Origin: Methanocaldococcus sp. 16A
GTDB taxonomy: Archaea > AGJL01 > Methanococci > Methanococcales > Methanocaldococcaceae
Reading direction: 5' to 3' (one strand)
DNA length: 64,000 nucleotides
Assembly: GCA_049860595.1 (NCBI GenBank)
Contig: CP187551.1
In this document: piece after piece, positions 4,822 through 52,081 of the stretch
Layout: every line of letters starts with the position of its first letter
Position numbering within the stretch: position 1 is the stretch's first letter
Program-made: the position numbers and the translations under genes
Notes under the pieces: generated by a model
What the model saw: the letters and a program-made list of their open reading frames with translations, nothing else
Database searches by the model: none
Told to the model about the DNA's origin: nothing

Positions 4822-5388
4822 ATGGCTGAGATAGTAGTATATTGTGAAGATAAAGCTGGAAAGGAGATTTATACAAAAGTTATACAAACAGCATTAGAAG
4901 ATTTATTATTAGGAAAATCAATAATTAGAGTAGAATTTATTGCTAAAGAAAAAGAACCATATTTTATATTGGGAGTTCTCCCAAAGCCAACAAGAAAGAT
5001 TATTAAGCTTAGAGATTTTGCTGAAATTGTAGAGCAAAAGAAAGAAAACGATAGAGTAATATACAAATTAAAGATTACTGACGAAACCTATGTTCCACAC
5101 TTATTAAGAAAGATACATGTTATAGACCAACCGTCAAGGTTTGAAATTATTACAGATTCGGATATTGACTTAGATATGGAAGTTTATGATACAAGCAAAG
5201 ATTTTATAGATAAAGTAATGGATTTTATGAATAGAGTGTTTCCAGAGGGTATGAGAATTAGAAACACTTATGTAGGAAAAGCAATAGTTTCTGTAGCTTC
5301 AGAACGCCCAATAAAACCTGAAGAAAATGAAGAAGCTTTAAAATTAAAAGAAAAATTAGAGACAATGAATACTGCTGGCTATTATTAA
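4822..5388 (+). CDS. Methanogenesis marker protein 17
   Basis: Directly follows marker 15; RVFPEGMRIR and VASE motifs. Confidence 0.75.
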   Translation: MAEIVVYCEDKAGKEIYTKVIQTALEDLLLGKSIIRVEFIAKEKEPYFILGVLPKPTRKIIKLRDFAEIVEQKKENDRVIYKLKITDETYVPHLLRKIHVIDQPSRFEIITDSDIDLDMEVYDTSKDFIDKVMDFMNRVFPEGMRIRNTYVGKAIVSVASERPIKPEENEEALKLKEKLETMNTAGYY

Positions 5389-5396
5389 GTCAATCT

Positions 5397-6875
5397 TTAT
5401 AATGTAATATTTAAATTCTTTAGAGATTCTTTTGCATATTTTAAACCTTCATTTTCATCTTTTTCAATATATATCTCCACAGTTTTTTTAGCTATTTCTA
5501 AAAGTTTTTTACTATTCTCTCTTGCTTTAAATGATTGTTGGATTAGTTGGGAGATTTTTTGTTGGATTTGGGGTTCAATTAAGGGTATTGGAAGATTTAA
5601 TATGTCTTCATCTGTGAGAGTAGGATAAGTAGTTCCTGTGTAAAATTTATAACTCCACAAAGAAAAAATGTCTGTTCTTAAAAAAACAAACAATGTTTCA
5701 ATATTTATTTTTTTGTTTTCTTTTTCATGTAAAACTACAAATGCTGTGCTTCCAATCAAATTAGGATATGTCTTTTTTATAAGAGCGATACCTTTTCTAT
5801 AGGTTCTAACTTTAGACACTAACAAATCGTTTTTATCCAACTTTAATTTTGCATTTGCTGGTAAATCTTCCCCTCTAAGATAAGATGGGCTAAAATCTCC
5901 AGTTGAAATATTAACTGAACTTATTTCAACATAGTTATAATATTTTTCTTTATCAACTTTTAATTTATCTGTTTTATGCAAAAATTCCTTTGAAATTGTT
6001 GAATATCCATTTTTGTAATTCTTTATCAATTCTTCAATTTCATCATATTTGGGCTCCCAATATTCAGCATCCAGTCTATCTGCTCTTATAACCTCTGAAA
6101 GATTTCTTATTGAAATGTTTTCATCTTCCACAAATTCTATATTGCCTATTTTTATTTTCTTTGTTTTTGGTTTCCAATTTTTAAGTCCTAATTCTTCTAA
6201 TAATATTTCTTCTGCTTGTTTGTAAAGTTGTTCTGCTTTTTGCCTTTCTTCATAAGCTTTTAAGACAAGTTTTTCTATGAATTTTTGAAAAGTGTCAGAA
6301 GGTATTGGAATTTTAAGATTCATAATGTCATCTTCTGAAATCGCAGGATACATTGTAGCAGTTGTTTTTCTAACAAGTAAATCCCTGTAGTATTTTGTTT
6401 TAAAGAGTATAAATAAGTAACAGGGTTTTATACGATTGCTAATTATTTTTAACTTACAAAATCCTGTACTTGCAACTAATGGTTTTTGTTTTACTTCAAA
6501 AATAAAAGCCACTGCGTTTCTATTAGGCCTAACAGTAGAAATTAAAATATCATTTTTTTCAACAATTTTCTTTGCTCTTGATGGAGCTAAATGGGATGGT
6601 AATGTTTCAACTTCAAAGTCTCCTGTAATTAGATCCACATTAGATATTTCAATATAATAAAATTTATCGTATAATTTAGGATTAAAAGTACTGTATTTAT
6701 TTGAAGCTAAATTATATAGAAAATCATGATTTAAATTTTCTATCTTTTCTTGCAACATTATCCAAGAAGGATCATAATATTCAGCATCAAGCCTTAATTC
6801 TCCTTCTAATTCAGAAACATTAACTATGGAATATTCCACATCATAATATTTTCCTTTATGGGTAGCTGTTATCAT
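5397..6875 (-). CDS. Restriction-modification specificity (S) subunit with two TRDs
   Basis: Two RLDAEY repeats; two TRDs ending in YP..EDILNL.IP..Q coiled-coil conserved regions; same operon as the N-6 methylase. Confidence 0.85.
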   Translation of the reverse strand: MITATHKGKYYDVEYSIVNVSELEGELRLDAEYYDPSWIMLQEKIENLNHDFLYNLASNKYSTFNPKLYDKFYYIEISNVDLITGDFEVETLPSHLAPSRAKKIVEKNDILISTVRPNRNAVAFIFEVKQKPLVASTGFCKLKIISNRIKPCYLFILFKTKYYRDLLVRKTTATMYPAISEDDIMNLKIPIPSDTFQKFIEKLVLKAYEERQKAEQLYKQAEEILLEELGLKNWKPKTKKIKIGNIEFVEDENISIRNLSEVIRADRLDAEYWEPKYDEIEELIKNYKNGYSTISKEFLHKTDKLKVDKEKYYNYVEISSVNISTGDFSPSYLRGEDLPANAKLKLDKNDLLVSKVRTYRKGIALIKKTYPNLIGSTAFVVLHEKENKKINIETLFVFLRTDIFSLWSYKFYTGTTYPTLTDEDILNLPIPLIEPQIQQKISQLIQQSFKARENSKKLLEIAKKTVEIYIEKDENEGLKYAKESLKNLNITL

Positions 6876-6878
6876 TTA

Positions 6879-7469
6879 TTACACCTCATCTTTTATAAGT
6901 ATGCTTAAAATATTATAGCAAGCCTTTATTATCTTATGATTTTCATCTGTTGGTTCCATCTCTCCATGAATTAATTGATTTCTAATCATATACAAAATTT
7001 CAACAAAATATGGCCAGATCTCATCAGGATCATTTTTTACATATATTTTTCCTACTTTTATATAACCCCTAGGTTTCCTTTGTAAGTGAAAACTCCTTAT
7101 ATGGATAAACTCTTTAAAGCTAATTTCATCGAGTTTATTTCCATTCATTTGTGGCTTTATAGATTCTGTTTTTAATATTGTTTTACCCCCAAAAATCCCT
7201 CCATCATAGATTCTTATAAGTTCCCCTAAATACAATCTAAACTCTTTCCCATCATCTGAGTTTTCTTCAAATAGTCGTTTAAATTTTCTTCTTAACACAT
7301 TATCTGTTGTTTTAAGATTTTCAATATAGTCTCGGTCTTTTCTTAAATTTTCATTTTGGAACAATCTCTTATATAAGGCATTAAAAGATAACCATAGCTT
7401 TACAAATGCTGAAAAATAATCAATTTCAGCTTTTCTAAACCATTCTAAACTATTAGATTGACGGGGCAT
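6879..7469 (-). CDS. HEPN-like protein (putative RNase toxin)
   Basis: N-terminal FSAFVKLWLSFNALY helix and C-terminal LYMIRNQLIHG (R-x4-H) motif; 196 aa. Confidence 0.65.
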   Translation of the reverse strand: MPRQSNSLEWFRKAEIDYFSAFVKLWLSFNALYKRLFQNENLRKDRDYIENLKTTDNVLRRKFKRLFEENSDDGKEFRLYLGELIRIYDGGIFGGKTILKTESIKPQMNGNKLDEISFKEFIHIRSFHLQRKPRGYIKVGKIYVKNDPDEIWPYFVEILYMIRNQLIHGEMEPTDENHKIIKACYNILSILIKDEV

Positions 7470-7470
7470 T

Positions 7471-9462
7471 TTAATCCACCTCTAAATCCTCTAAAAAGTC
7501 AAAAGCCTCATCCCCATCTTCTAACCTTTTTAATCCCCATTTGATAAAAGCATCTGCTATATCAAATAAATCTGTCTGATAAATAGGATTTCCTTTTTTA
7601 TCTCTTATATAATTCCCGTTTTCATCTTTTACAAAAATATATTCTCCTGAGTTATCTTTAAATGGAATCTTTGAAACAGCAAAAAAGATAGGATAATCTT
7701 TCAATTTTGGATTTCCTCCTTCGTCAAGTTCTTCTTCTTTCCATTTTCTTAAAATTAATAAAGAAGTTTTTACTCCAGCATGTGGTTTAAATGAATTAGG
7801 ATGTAATCCAACTACTGCTAATATTCTTGCTCTTTTCATAATAAATTCTCTAACATATCTTTCTGTAGTATTATTAAAAATCCCTTGAGGTAAAACAATT
7901 GCCAGCCTACCGCCTGGCTTTATCATATCTAAAGCCCTTTCAATAAACAATATGTGTCTTTCAATTTTGCTCTGCTCCTTCTTCTTTTTATTTTCTGGAA
8001 CTATTTTATAATTATTTTTAAACCATGATTCCCTAATTTCCCCCGCAAATGGGGGATTTGATAATAAAATGTCAAAATTAAGTTCTTTAAATTTTTCATC
8101 TCTTACTAAATTTTCTTCTTTTAGATCTGCTTTTAACTTTTCACTCCATTTAACAAACTCCAAAGAATTTTCTTTATAAATATGAGATCTACCATCTCCA
8201 GAAATAAGCATTAAAGCTTTTGCGATTTTAACGGCTTTTTCATCAAAATCTATTCCCCATAAATATTTTCCAGCATATATTATTTTTTCAGCTTCATTTA
8301 AATTATATTTTTCCCAAACATATTGCATTGCATGAATTAAGAATCCAGCACTACCACATGCTGGATCAATAATATATTCATCCTCTCGAGGATTTAACAT
8401 TTTAACTGCAGCATCTATAATTACTCTTGGAGTGAAATATTGACCTTTTTTAGATTTTGAGACTTCTGGAACTAAATATTCAAAAGCATCATCAATTATT
8501 CTTAAATCAGCTCCAAAAAGTTTTAAATTTTGCATTTCTGCAACACAAATATCTAAGTGCTCAGGTTTTAATTTGATTTTATCAGTTTTTTCGAAAATAC
8601 CTGGCCATTGCCTTTTAGCTTTATCAAACAAATCTGATATAACTTTATATGTTGTATTTGGATCTGAATATTTCCTAAATTCAAGAATTTTTCCTTTTCT
8701 TCTTTTGGCTTTATATTCATCGTAAAGTTTTGCATATATTAATTTAAAAACTTCATTAAACACATCTACTCCCGAATTAGCCAAAACTAATTCTTCTAAA
8801 GTTTTTATAATCTCCTTAAAATTTGGTTTTTTTGTTTTATATATCTCCTCTAATTTATCCAAAGTCCATTCTCTTTTTAAAATAATATTGGTTACTTCTA
8901 AAGCTGGATTTTTAGAATCTTTTACTTTTTGATACTCCATATATGTTGGAATATCAGGCAAGTTATCTTCAAATTCTCTTGGATATGGTCTGTATAAAAT
9001 TATTTGTTCTTTTCCATTTATTGCTACACCAATAGGAGAACCTTCCGCATTTAAATAACTTTTTAGCTGAGGAATATTTAATCTTTCATAAGGAGATTTT
9101 ACCTCTACTATAATCCAAGGAGTTATTTTGTCATCTTGATAAACTATTATATCTGCTCTCTTCTTTTCTCTCCCAAAACTGACTTTTTCTTCAATTTTTA
9201 TATTTTCTTTTGGATATTTATAATTATCAATTAATTCATAAAGAAAAAGTTGTCTTACGATTTCTTCAGGTTTTTTCTTATTCTTTGTTTCATCAAACAC
9301 TAATAATTCCTTTTCTTTTGAATCATAACTTTTAATATACCATTTTCCTTTTTCTTTTTCATAAATTTTAATCTTTGGGATATGAGAAACTAATAAAGGA
9401 ACTTCACTTTCAATATTGGGTATTATTTTTAATAGAATATCCATATTTTGTTTTTCATTCAT
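7471..9462 (-). CDS. Fused HsdR_N-type endonuclease / N6-adenine DNA methyltransferase (Type IIB/IIG-like RM subunit)
   Basis: N-terminal PEEIVRQ..RADIIVY..IIVEVK..QLKSY nuclease motif; C-terminal GQYFTPR, DPACGSAGFL and NPPF methylase motifs. Confidence 0.88.
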   Translation of the reverse strand: MNEKQNMDILLKIIPNIESEVPLLVSHIPKIKIYEKEKGKWYIKSYDSKEKELLVFDETKNKKKPEEIVRQLFLYELIDNYKYPKENIKIEEKVSFGREKKRADIIVYQDDKITPWIIVEVKSPYERLNIPQLKSYLNAEGSPIGVAINGKEQIILYRPYPREFEDNLPDIPTYMEYQKVKDSKNPALEVTNIILKREWTLDKLEEIYKTKKPNFKEIIKTLEELVLANSGVDVFNEVFKLIYAKLYDEYKAKRRKGKILEFRKYSDPNTTYKVISDLFDKAKRQWPGIFEKTDKIKLKPEHLDICVAEMQNLKLFGADLRIIDDAFEYLVPEVSKSKKGQYFTPRVIIDAAVKMLNPREDEYIIDPACGSAGFLIHAMQYVWEKYNLNEAEKIIYAGKYLWGIDFDEKAVKIAKALMLISGDGRSHIYKENSLEFVKWSEKLKADLKEENLVRDEKFKELNFDILLSNPPFAGEIRESWFKNNYKIVPENKKKKEQSKIERHILFIERALDMIKPGGRLAIVLPQGIFNNTTERYVREFIMKRARILAVVGLHPNSFKPHAGVKTSLLILRKWKEEELDEGGNPKLKDYPIFFAVSKIPFKDNSGEYIFVKDENGNYIRDKKGNPIYQTDLFDIADAFIKWGLKRLEDGDEAFDFLEDLEVD

Positions 9463-9634
9463 AGATTATCACCATTATTATTAATTTACTCCCGTATTAT
9501 ATCAAAATTCAAACTTAATAAATTATTTATATATGCGGTTTATTATATTATTTCGTATATTTTAAGTAGAATTACAGATATTGTTAAATATTAACTTTTC
9601 TATTAATCTAATATAATCTAAAATTTAATTTTTT

Positions 9635-10504
9635 GTGATGACTATGATAATTTTAAGAAATGAGATTTGCGATAAATTGGAAAAAATAGTTAAAAATTTA
9701 AAGATAGTTAAACACTGCATTGGCTGTGAAGGGATAGATTTAGAGATAGAAAATCCTCATCATCATCCCTCAATAGAATTAACACAAAAGTGCAATTTAA
9801 ACTGTATTTATTGTTATTCTAAACTAAAAAATGTAAAAAGAGGAATTTATGGAAATTTAGAAGAGGCAGAGGCAGTTACCATATCTCAATATGGAGAGCC
9901 GTTATTGGATTTGGAAGGAGTAAAAAAAGGTATTGAATTTAGTAAAGATTTAGGACTAAGAGTTGATTTACAAACAAATGGTATTTTATTAAATGGAAGA
10001 ATTATAGAGGAATTTAAAGATTTAGGTTTAGATTTGATAATGATTAGTTTGAGCACTTTTAGTAGTGAGAAATATAAATTATTGACAGGAAAAGATTATT
10101 TTGAGAGAGTTTTAAATAATATAAAAATTGCTTCAAAATATTTGCATACAATTGTTAGAGCAATTTATATTCCAGGATTTAATGATAATGAGCTCTTAAA
10201 TTTAGCTAAAGAACTTAATGGCTACGCTGATGAAATTATGGTTCATCAACTCATATCTTACAAAGAGAACTTAAGTTTTTTAAAAAATGCTGGGATAGAT
10301 TTGAATAATTTGGGAAAAATTAGAGATTTACTTTTAATAGTTGATGAAATGCAAAAAAATGTACCTAAAATTAATGTCACTATTAAAGGATGCTTATTAG
10401 TTCAATTAAAGGAGATGGATGGTTTTATATTAAATAATATAACTTATGATGTGTTCTCGGAAGTTCCAGATATTAAAAGAGAATATAAGCCCTTACCATG
10501 GTGA
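9635..10504 (+). CDS. Radical SAM protein of unknown function
   Basis: CNLNCIYC (CxxxCxxC), GEPLL, QTNG; extra N-terminal HCIGC. Confidence 0.85.
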   Translation: MMTMIILRNEICDKLEKIVKNLKIVKHCIGCEGIDLEIENPHHHPSIELTQKCNLNCIYCYSKLKNVKRGIYGNLEEAEAVTISQYGEPLLDLEGVKKGIEFSKDLGLRVDLQTNGILLNGRIIEEFKDLGLDLIMISLSTFSSEKYKLLTGKDYFERVLNNIKIASKYLHTIVRAIYIPGFNDNELLNLAKELNGYADEIMVHQLISYKENLSFLKNAGIDLNNLGKIRDLLLIVDEMQKNVPKINVTIKGCLLVQLKEMDGFILNNITYDVFSEVPDIKREYKPLPW

Positions 10505-50419: not shown

Positions 50420-52081
50420 ATGGATGCTGAAAAAAGATTGTTCTTAAAAGCATTAAAGGAGAAGTTTGAAGAAGACCCAAAAGAAAAATACACTAAGTTC
50501 TACATCTTCGGAGGATGGAAACAGTCAGCAAGAAAGAGAGAATTCGTTGAGGCTGCACAAAAATTAATTGAGAAGAGAGGAGGAATTCCATTCTACAACC
50601 CAGATATTGGGGTTCCATTAGGGCAAAGAAAATTAATGCCTTACAAAGTTTCAAATACAGATGCAATTGTTGAAGGGGATGACTTACACTTCATGAACAA
50701 CGCTGCAATGCAGCAGTTTTGGGATGACATTAGAAGAACAGTAATTGTTGGTATGGACACAGCTCACGCTGTATTAGAGAAAAGATTAGGGGTAGAAGTT
50801 ACACCAGAAACAATTAACGAATACATGGAGACTATTAACCACGCTTTACCAGGAGGGGCTGTTGTCCAAGAGCACATGGTTGAGGTACACCCAGCATTAG
50901 TTTGGGACTGTTATGCTAAGATATTCACTGGAGATGACGAATTAGCTGATGAAATTGACAAAAGATTCTTAATCGACATTAACAAGTTATTCCCAGAAGA
51001 GCAAGCAGAGCAAATCAAGAAAGCAATCGGTAAGAGGACATACCAAGTTTCAAGAGTTCCAACATTAGTTGGTAGAGTTTGTGATGGGGGGACAATAGCA
51101 AGATGGAGTGCTATGCAGATTGGAATGTCATTCATTACAGCTTACAAGTTGTGTGCTGGAGAGGCAGCTATCGCTGACTTCTCATACGCTGCAAAACACG
51201 CAGATGTTATTCAAATGGCTTCATTCTTACCTGCAAGGAGAGCAAGAGGTCCAAATGAACCTGGAGGAATGTTCTTCGGAGTTTTAGCTGATGTTGTTCA
51301 GACTTCAAGAGTTTCAGACGACCCAGTTGAACAGTCATTAGAAGTCGTTGCAGCAGGAGCTATGCTCTATGACCAAATCTGGTTAGGAAGTTACATGTCT
51401 GGAGGGGTTGGATTCACACAGTATGCTACTGCATCCTATACAGATGACATCTTAGATGACTTCTCATACTATGGATACGATTACGTAACCAAGAAATATG
51501 GAGGATGTAATAGCGTAAAACCAACAATGGATGTTGTTGAAGACATTGCAACAGAAGTTACATTATATGCGTTAGAGCAATACGACAGCTTCCCAGCTTT
51601 ATTAGAAGACCACTTCGGAGGTTCACAAAGAGCTGCAGTTACCGCAGCTGCATCAGGTATTTCAGTAGCATTGGCTACTGGAAACTCAAACGCTGGACTT
51701 AACGGATGGTACTTAAGCCAAATAATGCATAAAGAATACCACAGCAGATTAGGATTCTACGGATATGACTTGCAAGACCAGTGTGGAGCAGCTAACTCAT
51801 TGTCATTCAGAAACGATGAAGGTTCACCATTAGAGTTAAGAGGTCCAAACTATCCAAACTATGCAATGAACGTTGGTCACCAAGGAGAGTATGCTGGAAT
51901 TACACAAGCAGCACACTCAGCAAGAGGTGATGCTTTCGCACTCAACCCATTAATTAAAGTTGCATTCGCAGACCCATCATTAATCTTCGACTTCAGATAC
52001 CCAAGAAAAGAGTTTGCAAGAGGTGCTTTAAGAGAGTTCGAACCTGCTGGAGAAAGAGACCCAATCATTCCAGCTCACTAA
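50420..52081 (+). CDS. mcrA: Methyl-coenzyme M reductase alpha subunit
   Basis: [50 protein letters not shown] and NYAMNVGH. Confidence 0.99.

Follow-up and report, generated by a model that had tools for sequence, protein, structure and literature searches.

A Type IIB-like restriction–modification cassette with a probable HEPN-type accessory protein in a hyperthermophilic methanogen

Type IIB restriction enzymes such as BsaXI and BcgI fuse a PD-(D/E)xK nuclease to a gamma-class N6-adenine methylase; they work with a separate S subunit that has two target-recognition domains (TRDs), and they have no translocase. BsaXI is encoded by two genes and is described as functioning with RM and S only (PMC9159934, PMC11997821). 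PrrC is encoded within the EcoprrI Type Ic hsdMSR operon; in PrrC and in RloC, an N-terminal ABC-ATPase is carried on a C-terminal HEPN nuclease. HEPN genes within restriction–modification (R-M) operons were described in 2013 by Anantharaman et al. (PMC3710099), whose main text ties at least 16 HEPN clades to such operons, many of them stand-alone (Abi2/AbiD/F, AbiU2, AbiJ, ApeA, DUF4145, C6orf70/DUF4209, RiboL-PSP and others), and proposes for them a PrrC-like back-up model. Last, the Ronin system consists of HsdM, HsdS and the effector RonA (Silas et al., bioRxiv 10.1101/2023.04.06.535777). RonA, a protein of 61 aa, is associated by the authors with disruption of the inner membrane; their text proposes that it is sequestered by the M–S complex and freed by anti-restriction proteins.

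In the window (the whole stretch of DNA that was analysed, 64,000 nucleotides), we find a cassette of three minus-strand open reading frames: gene 1 (7471–9462, 663 aa) codes for an RM subunit, gene 2 (6879–7469, 196 aa) for a protein hereafter called X, a probable divergent HEPN-type RNase, and gene 3 (5397–6875, 492 aa) for an S subunit with two TRDs. The genes are separated by only 1 and 3 nt; the reading frames on either side (4822–5388 and 9635–10504) are on the plus strand. This is exactly the layout given in a preliminary description of this DNA, and the motifs it quoted are also present in the translations (RADIIVY...VEVK...QLKSY and NPPF in gene 1, FVKLWLSFNALY and IRNQLIHG in gene 2). 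The three genes are real, since each has many conserved homologues. Upstream, on the same strand, inspection of the sequence shows a non-coding leader (9463–9599), with a Shine-Dalgarno-like GGTGA motif 6–10 nt before the start of RM. A sigma-70 scan returned fewer sites than shuffled sequences, this model being bacterial and inapplicable to an archaeal host. The best overall explanation, to which we give a probability of about one half, is that of an acquired Type IIB RM and S pair with an accessory protein, X, probably a HEPN RNase, which may back up restriction.

The cassette is indeed an insertion between core genes, as had been proposed. Homology to the closest same-genus genome (locus L110 of G014) stops at 5388 and restarts at 9600, which defines an insert of 4,211 bp (5389–9599) that includes the leader and codes for just the three cassette genes, with no integrase or transposase inside it. 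The flanking core genes (DUF2113 and radical-SAM) sit side by side in seven genomes of the same genus, the CTATTA microhomology is seen at both junctions (5379 and 9600), and the flanking DNA is 96–98% identical to that of the relative that has no cassette. The cassette is a recent and clean acquisition, which sets this methanogen apart from that relative, and the three-gene unit is a self-contained, horizontally acquired defence module. The X–RM–S module is not found in the other 39 genomes sampled from the phylum of the owner. The latter has two MCR-alpha genes and a reverse gyrase (1847 bits), which establishes that it is a hyperthermophilic methanogen, in agreement with the initial assignment.

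The RM subunit consists of an N-terminal PD-(D/E)xK nuclease (Pfam HSDR_N_2, residues 65–172), a helical connector and a gamma-class N6-adenine methyltransferase (N6_Mtase, 322–642), all on a single polypeptide. Its best solved relative is RM.BsaXI (8w0p_A, 1e-28 across residues 65–582 in a sequence search); in a profile comparison (3.2e-45) the nuclease block is aligned, and E91, D104, E120 and K122 fall on E73, D90, E105 and K107, which are described as the catalytic residues of the BsaXI nuclease (PMC11997821). These four residues, as well as Q132 and Y136 of the nuclease and the NPPF motif of the methylase (469–472), are invariant in all 11 RM homologues. Gene 3 has two Methylase_S stretches according to Pfam, and its relatives in the PDB are the solved Type I S subunits 5ybb_D and 3okg_A (1.3e-17). 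PADLOC recognizes RM as MTase_I (PDLC03034, 3.6e-173, over the full length) and S through many Specificity_I models, but has no match for X. There is no gene for an HsdR-type (Res) translocase in the insert or adjoining the cassette. Its sequence places gene 1 among the Type IIB RM fusions of the BsaXI/BcgI class; the earlier assignment of a motor-less RM with a two-TRD S subunit to a Type IIB-like architecture is therefore sound. Two differences with BsaXI must be mentioned: its RM is longer (916 aa, against 663 aa here) and has a C-terminal knob/paddle that is absent here (as far as PMC11997821 describes it), and the present cassette comprises a third, conserved gene.

X belongs to a large family (56 close homologues, 482 representative clusters at 50% identity), and its association with RM and S is recurrent: in 19 of the 21 loci that were retrieved using the X profile, the neighbours of X include an RM gene of this family, an S gene or both, the two unlinked loci being the most distant matches. 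The genes are ordered M-X-S or M-S-X. The latter order is that of three genomes (G040, G049 and G202) and of a Klebsiella plasmid, and it recurs in 3 of 5426 E. coli genomes; the start and stop codons of these cassettes overlap or abut. RM and X diverge in step, their pairwise identities being correlated (Spearman 0.87, from 66 non-independent pairs among 12 loci), and a neighbour from the same RM family is kept while the identity of X ranges from about 29% (L078) to 79% (L016). The module is mostly bacterial and metagenomic; it is no archaeal peculiarity.

It may be that the restriction enzyme includes X as an integral, non-toxic subunit, acting as a helical adaptor or as a regulator of assembly, cleavage or the balance between methylation and restriction, and that the conserved R and H bind nucleic acid or a partner and cleave no RNA. 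The tight gene coupling and the co-divergence of X with RM go in this direction, as does a fold search that returns no HEPN (see below), nor is there evidence of an antitoxin, of a sensor domain or of a fused form of X (the failure to find longer fused forms being weak evidence). We nevertheless consider this unlikely. In sequence, X resembles none of the BsaXI chains, BsaXI is described as working with RM and S alone (PMC9159934, PMC11997821), and among 401 Pseudomonadota genomes only two of the ten close homologues of RM are accompanied by X, which makes X an accessory module; the genomes of the other eight contain no X, and the enzyme can therefore do without it. Besides, distant relatives of X are found in defence contexts other than R-M, with dynamin-like GTPases, with a STAND-like NTPase or in a DUF1156 system, which is how effector modules behave.

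The opposite possibility is that of an autonomous toxin or abortive-infection passenger, with X occupying a permissive slot of the R-M locus without any physical or regulatory coupling to RM and S. Other loci of the same RM family do have unrelated passengers at the position of X (Bro-N, a HEPN-clan NTase_sub_bind+MNT fusion, DUF1016), and X-like proteins occur without RM or S in four distant loci (L018, L036, L080 and L081). On the other hand, the same RM family adjoins X over the whole range of X identities and co-diverges with it, the insertion in this genome corresponds exactly to the conserved trio, and a toxin that stands alone, with no antitoxin, would have to be controlled in some way, so that we hold an uncoupled passenger to be quite unlikely.

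What kind of protein X is has to be deduced from remote relationships. It has no family match in Pfam, NCBIfam, PADLOC, PHROGs or PDB, is named "hypothetical protein" wherever it is encountered, and its protein-atlas neighbours are unnamed clusters throughout. According to the text of PMC3710099, HEPN proteins are defined by an R-x4-6-H motif, with a polar residue after R, which ends the penultimate helix. In X, R163 and H168 form an R-x4-H motif that is invariant in 31 close and 62 diverse members of the family; R163 is directly followed by N164 (or C), and G169 is nearly invariant. An N-terminal helix (DYFSAF.KLWLSFNALY) is also conserved. In the AF2 model (pLDDT 88), a helix (148–167) is followed by a loop and by the last helix (175–192), and the motif lies where the former ends and the loop starts; a beta-rich insert (about 88–147) precedes the penultimate helix, and there are two extra helices. 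In the secondary structure of this model, the position of the motif and the long insert ahead of it match the published description of HEPN proteins.

Profile comparisons link X weakly to the same superfamily. Using hhalign, the X-family alignment A2 matches 23 bona fide RiboL-PSP-HEPN proteins (P 2.4e-4, 43%; 51% in a further run) with R and H aligned, over the last 58 columns only, and the family also matches three DUF4209 (HEPN) proteins (P 1e-3, 21%), while controls give P of at least 0.06 and the comparison with three Apea-HEPN proteins is null (P 0.7). The only weak Pfam matches shared by more than one of the 62 members are HEPN_RiboL-PSP (three members) and DUF4209 (two), and one member exceeds the cut-off of PF18735 (29.1 against 28.4 bits). 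Conversely, the X of this window matches no Pfam HEPN model at threshold, and jackhmmer started from X recruits none of the 23 RiboL-PSP proteins, so that the two families remain unmerged.

The fold search is less favourable. With Foldseek, the X model has no match in PDB or BFVD at E below 0.5, far from the E ≤ 0.001 that would signal structural similarity in what is a low-power test, and among the matches listed there is one HEPN-containing chain, RnlA (prob 0.02). The model of a bona fide RiboL-PSP protein has no significant match either, but 8 of its 47 listed rows are HEPN entries, so that X is at best an atypical HEPN. The conserved motif could have arisen by convergence in a nuclease or other enzyme of a different fold, which might act for example on DNA alongside the RM nuclease: a confident model without a structural neighbour, a profile match that is only local and the unnamed atlas neighbours are what one would see in this case. 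We find this very unlikely, considering that the composition of the motif, its secondary-structure position and the insert fit the HEPN definition (in the text of PMC3710099), that the alignments to two independent HEPN families coincide at this motif and score better than the controls, and that Foldseek yields no significant match for an authentic HEPN family either. X is thus probably a divergent, metal-independent RNase of the HEPN superfamily, with the R163/H168 dyad as its predicted active site; since the fold search finds no HEPN, membership is probable, not established. Regarding the initial proposal of a HEPN RNase, the motif, its position and the two profile matches are in favour, whereas the Pfam scores, jackhmmer and Foldseek do not bring the expected confirmation.

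How could such a protein be connected to restriction? By analogy with BsaXI, from which both stoichiometry and activity are taken, RM and the two-TRD S subunit would form an (RM)2S complex, which would methylate the bipartite sites of the host and cut unmethylated incoming DNA without a translocase. X is an accessory component co-inherited with a subset of this RM family. Like what is proposed for PrrC–EcoprrI and Ronin, X may be kept inactive by the RM–S complex and freed when restriction is blocked or overwhelmed, as a second line of defence that arrests growth; we put forward this caging tentatively, on the strength of the analogy. A more specific version, which we regard as doubtful, is that the trio would be a single holoenzyme, a Type IIB complex that physically cages an atypical HEPN-like RNase, and that, once a viral anti-restriction factor occupies or jams the DNA-binding cleft of (RM)2S, the RNase would be freed and would arrest the cell. 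If it were true, this would be a minimal, ATPase-free machine combining restriction and abortive infection, working at hyperthermophilic temperatures in an archaeon and present also on enterobacterial plasmids.

The likeness to PrrC, whose gene also lies beside M and S, may indicate the same logic of a latent RNase that backs restriction (a concept found in PMC3710099, as far as its text goes). However, X has neither of the hallmarks of PrrC and RloC, as was initially noted: it has no ATPase domain, and its partner is a Type IIB-like RM fusion without hsdR instead of Type Ic hsdMSR. No sequence relationship between X and PrrC was detected. X resembles the stand-alone R-M HEPNs, which are also small solo proteins with R-x4-H and a polar residue in an R-M neighbourhood, RiboL-PSP-HEPN and DUF4209 being its nearest profile matches; it departs from them by being outside the Pfam HEPN thresholds, by its extra helices and beta-rich insert, and by its specific partner, the RM fusion. 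X is set apart from the families of 2013 by the text of the paper, and members may figure in its supplementary lists. Ronin resembles the cassette in that a small effector is encoded in tight linkage with an R-less M and S pair, but RonA is unrelated to X, and the M protein of the cassette retains an intact nuclease, unlike Ronin, which suggests that the system acts in restriction and not purely as a decoy.

The arrangement was first thought to be undescribed, which cannot be maintained given that stand-alone HEPNs linked to R-M and the back-up model are both in the text of PMC3710099. HEPN genes in R-M operons having been known since 2013, the cassette illustrates no new principle; it is a variant of an R-M and HEPN-type arrangement already predicted for bacteria. 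Its interest lies in a family of 482 clusters that Pfam, NCBIfam, PADLOC, PHROGs and PDB do not recognize, and in its tie to one defined partner, a BsaXI-like RM fusion with S. This makes a concrete three-gene system where the long-standing prediction that R-M operons carry RNase back-ups besides PrrC can be tested, with neither an ATPase sensor nor a translocase to complicate matters. Standard laboratory hosts are suitable for such tests, since near-identical bacterial copies are present in E. coli and on a plasmid of Klebsiella. As for the methanogen, the cassette should confer a strain-specific m6A methylation motif.

Last, the best NCBIfam matches of RM and S are the methyltransferase MAD2 (279 bits, cut-off 720) and the S subunit MAD5 (117 bits, cut-off 400), respectively, which indicates that the methylase and S modules are related to those of the methylation-associated defence system, MADS; membership of MADS itself was rejected, because these scores are far under the cut-offs and the insert contains no other mad gene. 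Only one HsdR-like match is present in the whole genome; it lies about 170 kb from the cassette, beside its own M and S genes.

The cassette consists of three minus-strand open reading frames, RM (the nuclease–methylase fusion, 663 aa, 7471-9462), X (196 aa, 6879-7469) and S (492 aa, 5397-6875), which are separated by gaps of 1 and 3 nt and flanked by plus-strand genes. The coordinates, strand and packing given in the preliminary description match the ORF listing exactly, and all the motifs that it quoted are present in the translated proteins. The flanks are ordinary archaeal core genes, for an AIR-synthase-like protein, a BadF/BcrA-type ATPase and DUF2113 upstream, and for radical SAM, DUF366, permease and M24 peptidase proteins downstream. 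We regard the cassette as real, cleanly delimited and defensive in role, and it is probably functional. A scan for sigma-70 promoters and terminators was uninformative, the host being an archaeon. Since the owner's genome encodes two MCR-alpha genes and one reverse gyrase, the owner is indeed a hyperthermophilic methanogen, as had been supposed. One of the two MCR alpha genes lies at about 51371-51751 of the window (G000:C1:915371-915751 in the owner's genome).

In RM, Pfam recognizes HSDR_N_2 (residues 65-172) and N6_Mtase (322-642), and the PADLOC model MTase_I PDLC03034 matches the protein end to end (3.6e-173). Among solved structures, the closest by sequence is the RM subunit of BsaXI, a Type IIB enzyme (1e-28 over residues 65-582), and a profile built from 11 RM homologues matches BsaXI at 3.2e-45. 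The accessible text of the cryo-EM study of BsaXI (PMC11997821) names E73, D90, E105 and K107 as residues that cleavage requires and that Type IIB enzymes conserve. Their partners in the profile alignment are E91, D104, E120 and K122 of RM, which, like Q132 and Y136 of the QxxxY motif and the NPPF motif (469-472), do not vary in any of 11 RM proteins, all taken from X-containing loci. The RM protein of BsaXI is longer (916 aa versus 663 aa) and the match of the cassette protein to it stops near BsaXI residue 640, so that the C-terminal region of BsaXI, where the accessible text of the same study (PMC11997821) places the paddle, has no counterpart here.

The S protein has two Methylase_S stretches according to Pfam, that is, two TRDs, and resembles Type I S subunits of solved structure (PDB). 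There is no HsdR-type motor in the cassette, and the genome has a single HsdR-like ORF, at a distance of about 170 kb, which scores 72.9 bits against TIGR00348, under the cut-off of that model. The proposal of a nuclease–methylase fusion working with a two-TRD S and no motor is therefore borne out by the Pfam domains, the match to BsaXI, the catalytic residues and the lack of HsdR. By analogy with BsaXI and BcgI, RM and S would assemble as (RM)2S, recognise a bipartite site and both methylate and cut around it. An identity as a MADS system was considered and rejected, because the top NCBIfam matches, MAD2 and MAD5, are far under their cut-offs; the gene content is also unlike that of MADS. The HsdR-like ORF (852 aa, helicase-like) belongs to a separate classical Type I-like locus outside the window (G000:C1:697231-702019), with a strong N6_Mtase ORF and a 445-aa two-TRD S ORF.

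X itself has no match in Pfam, NCBIfam, PADLOC or PHROGs. Searched against the PDB by sequence and by profile, X alone and two family alignments (A1 and the diverse A2) give chance-level matches only, and protein-atlas searches return unnamed clusters or nothing usable. The family is nevertheless real and widespread: a word-indexed search yields 56 relatives at E <= 1e-3 among 151 candidates, and an exhaustive profile search yields 482 representative clusters at E <= 1e-3, 209 of them at <= 1e-10. Five of the ten clusters checked carry a source name, in all cases 'hypothetical' or function unknown; one of these named clusters is from Thermococcus nautili.

Across 62 diverse members, whose identity to X ranges from about 24% to 78%, residues M1, W26, Y160, R163 and H168 are invariant, and W10, Y18, F22, N30, D45, K53, F77, E157, G169 and Y185 are nearly so. 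The AF2 model of X, which is confident (pLDDT 88.2, pTM 0.85), predicts helices at 18-36, 45-54, 58-68, 72-87, 148-167 and 175-192 and a beta-rich insert at about 88-147; R163 would close the penultimate helix and H168 would begin the loop after it. No longer, fused form of X turned up, which is weak evidence. A 452-aa ORF from genomes of the same order (L038:556-1914 in G017, and locus L039 in G019) matches the C-terminal half of X weakly (E 2e-4), has no Pfam domain and could be related to X as a fused or diverged form. In the X homologue of one metagenome contig (34.5 kb; L033:7001-7642), TGA codons stand in frame at conserved Gly/small residues of the family (YDG*LFG*K for the consensus YDGGLFGGK), a sequence pattern which suggests that this organism reads TGA as glycine (code 25). 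The protein-collection cluster P0059 has W at these positions, and the L033 frame leaves the family alignment after about residue 130.

The preliminary description tied X to restriction–modification genes, and the neighbourhoods agree with it. Among 21 loci fetched with the A1 profile (3 genomic and 18 metagenomic), X homologues lie beside RM and/or S in 19. The full RM-X-S order, with X between the two, is found in 12; L017 has the order RM-S-X, and six loci are truncated where their contig stops or interrupted because the genetic code differs, with X or its match still adjoining RM and/or S. Only L018 and L036 break the pattern; no other match is as distant. The gene boundaries abut or overlap in most X loci. 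Pairwise identities of RM and X are correlated (Spearman 0.87, 66 pairs from 12 loci), a value that is descriptive only because the pairs are not independent.

X was also found in 4 of 401 Pseudomonadota genomes, two of which (G049 and G202) have RM-S-X with the same RM architecture; the remaining two have distant X-like genes in other contexts. A conjugative IncF plasmid of Klebsiella pneumoniae (L131:4851-9066, NZ_LR890357.1) carries RM-S-X with two adjoining DUF262 genes; the trio is annotated 'N-6 DNA methylase / restriction endonuclease subunit S / hypothetical protein', and its X has 263 aa and scores 108 bits against the family HMM. This copy was reached only via the RM gene and then confirmed with the HMM; tblastn of X against plasmids and phages is negative at 1e-3, and no relative was found in viral contigs. 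Of 5,426 complete E. coli genomes, 3 have the plasmid-type trio in the chromosome, 99.9% identical and with X annotated as hypothetical.

Close RM homologues (E <= 1e-140, nuclease domain included) are present in 10 genomes of the 401-genome sample, and the assemblies of only two of these contain X at all: X is an optional companion of the RM family. Where it is missing, RM-family loci have other genes in the equivalent position, or nothing; the passengers are a Bro-N protein between RM and S or, after S, an NTase_sub_bind+Polbeta fusion (HEPN-MNT-like) followed by a DUF1016/YhcG nuclease. It may be that X is a structural or regulatory subunit, as a protein so regularly placed beside RM and S could be; since it is accessory and occurs in several defence-like contexts, we expect an effector and not a core enzyme subunit, and consider the subunit role unlikely. 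X could also be an autonomous passenger toxin, in a position that other genes occupy elsewhere; it keeps company with RM and/or S in nearly all the fetched loci, and this alternative seems to us quite unlikely.

L102:6411-10158 and L104:519-6055 are examples of RM-family loci that lack X and carry other passengers. A distant X-family protein of 223 aa is encoded directly behind a same-strand pair of dynamin-like GTPase genes (L081:3716-8424, G331:C2), a candidate for another kind of defence operon. Further distant proteins resembling X are encoded between the genes of a NOV_C-domain protein and a DUF1156 methylase (L036:3-3134), before that of a DUF6638 protein (L018:236-2439) and after that of a STAND-like NTPase (L080:528-3610).

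The R-x4-H motif formed by R163 and H168 points to a HEPN-type RNase, as the preliminary description held. At the level of sequence and predicted secondary structure, X agrees with all three HEPN features that we cite from a review (PMC3710099), the accessible text of which states that the residue following R is usually N, D or H and that inserts between helices 2 and 3 occur. Comparison of the X family with 23 HEPN_RiboL-PSP proteins over the Pfam cut-off, collected from 301 Pseudomonadota genomes, gives a probability of 43% with hhalign (P 2.4e-4, 58 columns, R and H aligned), and 51% in a separate run; three DUF4209 proteins, of the C6orf70 HEPN family, give 21% (P 1e-3) with the same motif. 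The controls are weaker: P is 0.15 and 0.18 for reversed alignments, 0.062 for the best of 20 column shuffles (one without usable output) and 0.34 for an unrelated RM alignment.

Weak Pfam matches also favour a HEPN. In the 62 members, the only weak Pfam matches shared by more than one protein are HEPN_RiboL-PSP (3, best E 0.0028) and DUF4209 (2), with HEPN_Apea found once; in 31 close members, Apea (2), DUF4209 (2) and RiboL-PSP (1) stand beside non-HEPN chance matches, among them DUF3623 and DUF384 (4 each). Other results speak against a HEPN. With three Apea proteins, the hhalign P is 0.7. Started from X on 1,050 sequences, jackhmmer settles on 241 family members and recruits none of the 23 RiboL-PSP proteins. 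Foldseek finds no match to the X model at E <= 0.001 in the PDB (best E 1.3) or BFVD (best E 0.58), and RnlA, which we take to contain a HEPN domain, is the only HEPN-containing protein among the PDB matches listed (prob 0.02). As a sensitivity control, a modelled bona fide RiboL-PSP protein (pLDDT 90.5) likewise has no significant PDB match (best E 0.41), but HEPN proteins make up 8 of its 47 listed matches (Csm6, YutE, four HEPN-toxin entries, MntA-HepT and 1wwp), so that the negative result for X is weak but real evidence.

The HEPN proposal is made plausible by the invariance and position of R-x4-H and by hhalign scores above controls; for X itself, no Pfam HEPN model reaches threshold, and jackhmmer and Foldseek do not bring out a link. 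We put the probability that X belongs to the HEPN superfamily at roughly 0.6; judging from its model, X would be at best an atypical member. That it is instead a non-HEPN enzyme, with the R/H dyad serving another chemistry, would fit the Foldseek result and not the hhalign comparison, and we hold it to be distinctly improbable. A protein of loci L068 and L081, the sole one passing both profiles, was tried as a bridge between X and RiboL-PSP and then given less weight: it is barely over the Pfam RiboL-PSP cut-off (29.1 versus 28.4 bits) and, after iteration, a clear X-family member (52.8 bits).

The analysis establishes the domains and conserved catalytic motifs of RM, the two-TRD S, the lack of a motor, the conserved trio and the invariant R/H dyad of X. 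By analogy with the HEPN literature, PrrC and Ronin, X would be a latent RNase controlled by the RM–S complex, and it would be released once restriction is blocked. The preliminary description knew of no such arrangement, but the principle was already set out in 2013: the accessible text of the HEPN review describes stand-alone HEPN genes within R-M operons, in at least 16 clades, as a second line of the PrrC kind (PMC3710099). In 2023, Ronin, an R-less M+S pair caging an effector, was reported on experimental grounds, according to the accessible text of the preprint (bioRxiv 10.1101/2023.04.06.535777). What appears to be new is the X family itself, recognised by no library searched, its recurrent and specific pairing with a BsaXI-like Type IIB RM fusion and S, and its presence in a hyperthermophilic archaeon. 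A full-text literature search returned no account of X with Type IIB RM and S; the supplementary tables of PMC3710099 might list members.

Regarding acquisition, the DUF2113 gene is found in 14 of 16 other genomes of the genus; the radical-SAM gene follows within 100 nt in seven of these 14 and after about 560 nt in one more, and is absent from the 1.5-kb flank in the other six. In the closest relative, G014, whose DUF2113 protein is 99% identical, nucleotide homology ends at window 5388 and restarts at 9600, hence an insert of 4,211 bp, which holds the three genes and a 137-nt leader only, with no integrase or transposase. The junctions (window 5379-5388 and 9600-9610) have only the hexamer CTATTA in common (CTATTATTAA on the left, CTATTAATCTA on the right); this microhomology may be left over from integration or, at only 27% G+C, have arisen by chance. 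With the X profile, no second copy turns up among 40 genomes of the owner's class, which are its whole phylum sample, and no X in the 16 other genomes of the genus. The nearest relatives of X, 72-79% identical, come from metagenome contigs of low G+C and from a MAG labelled 'bacterium' by its submitters.
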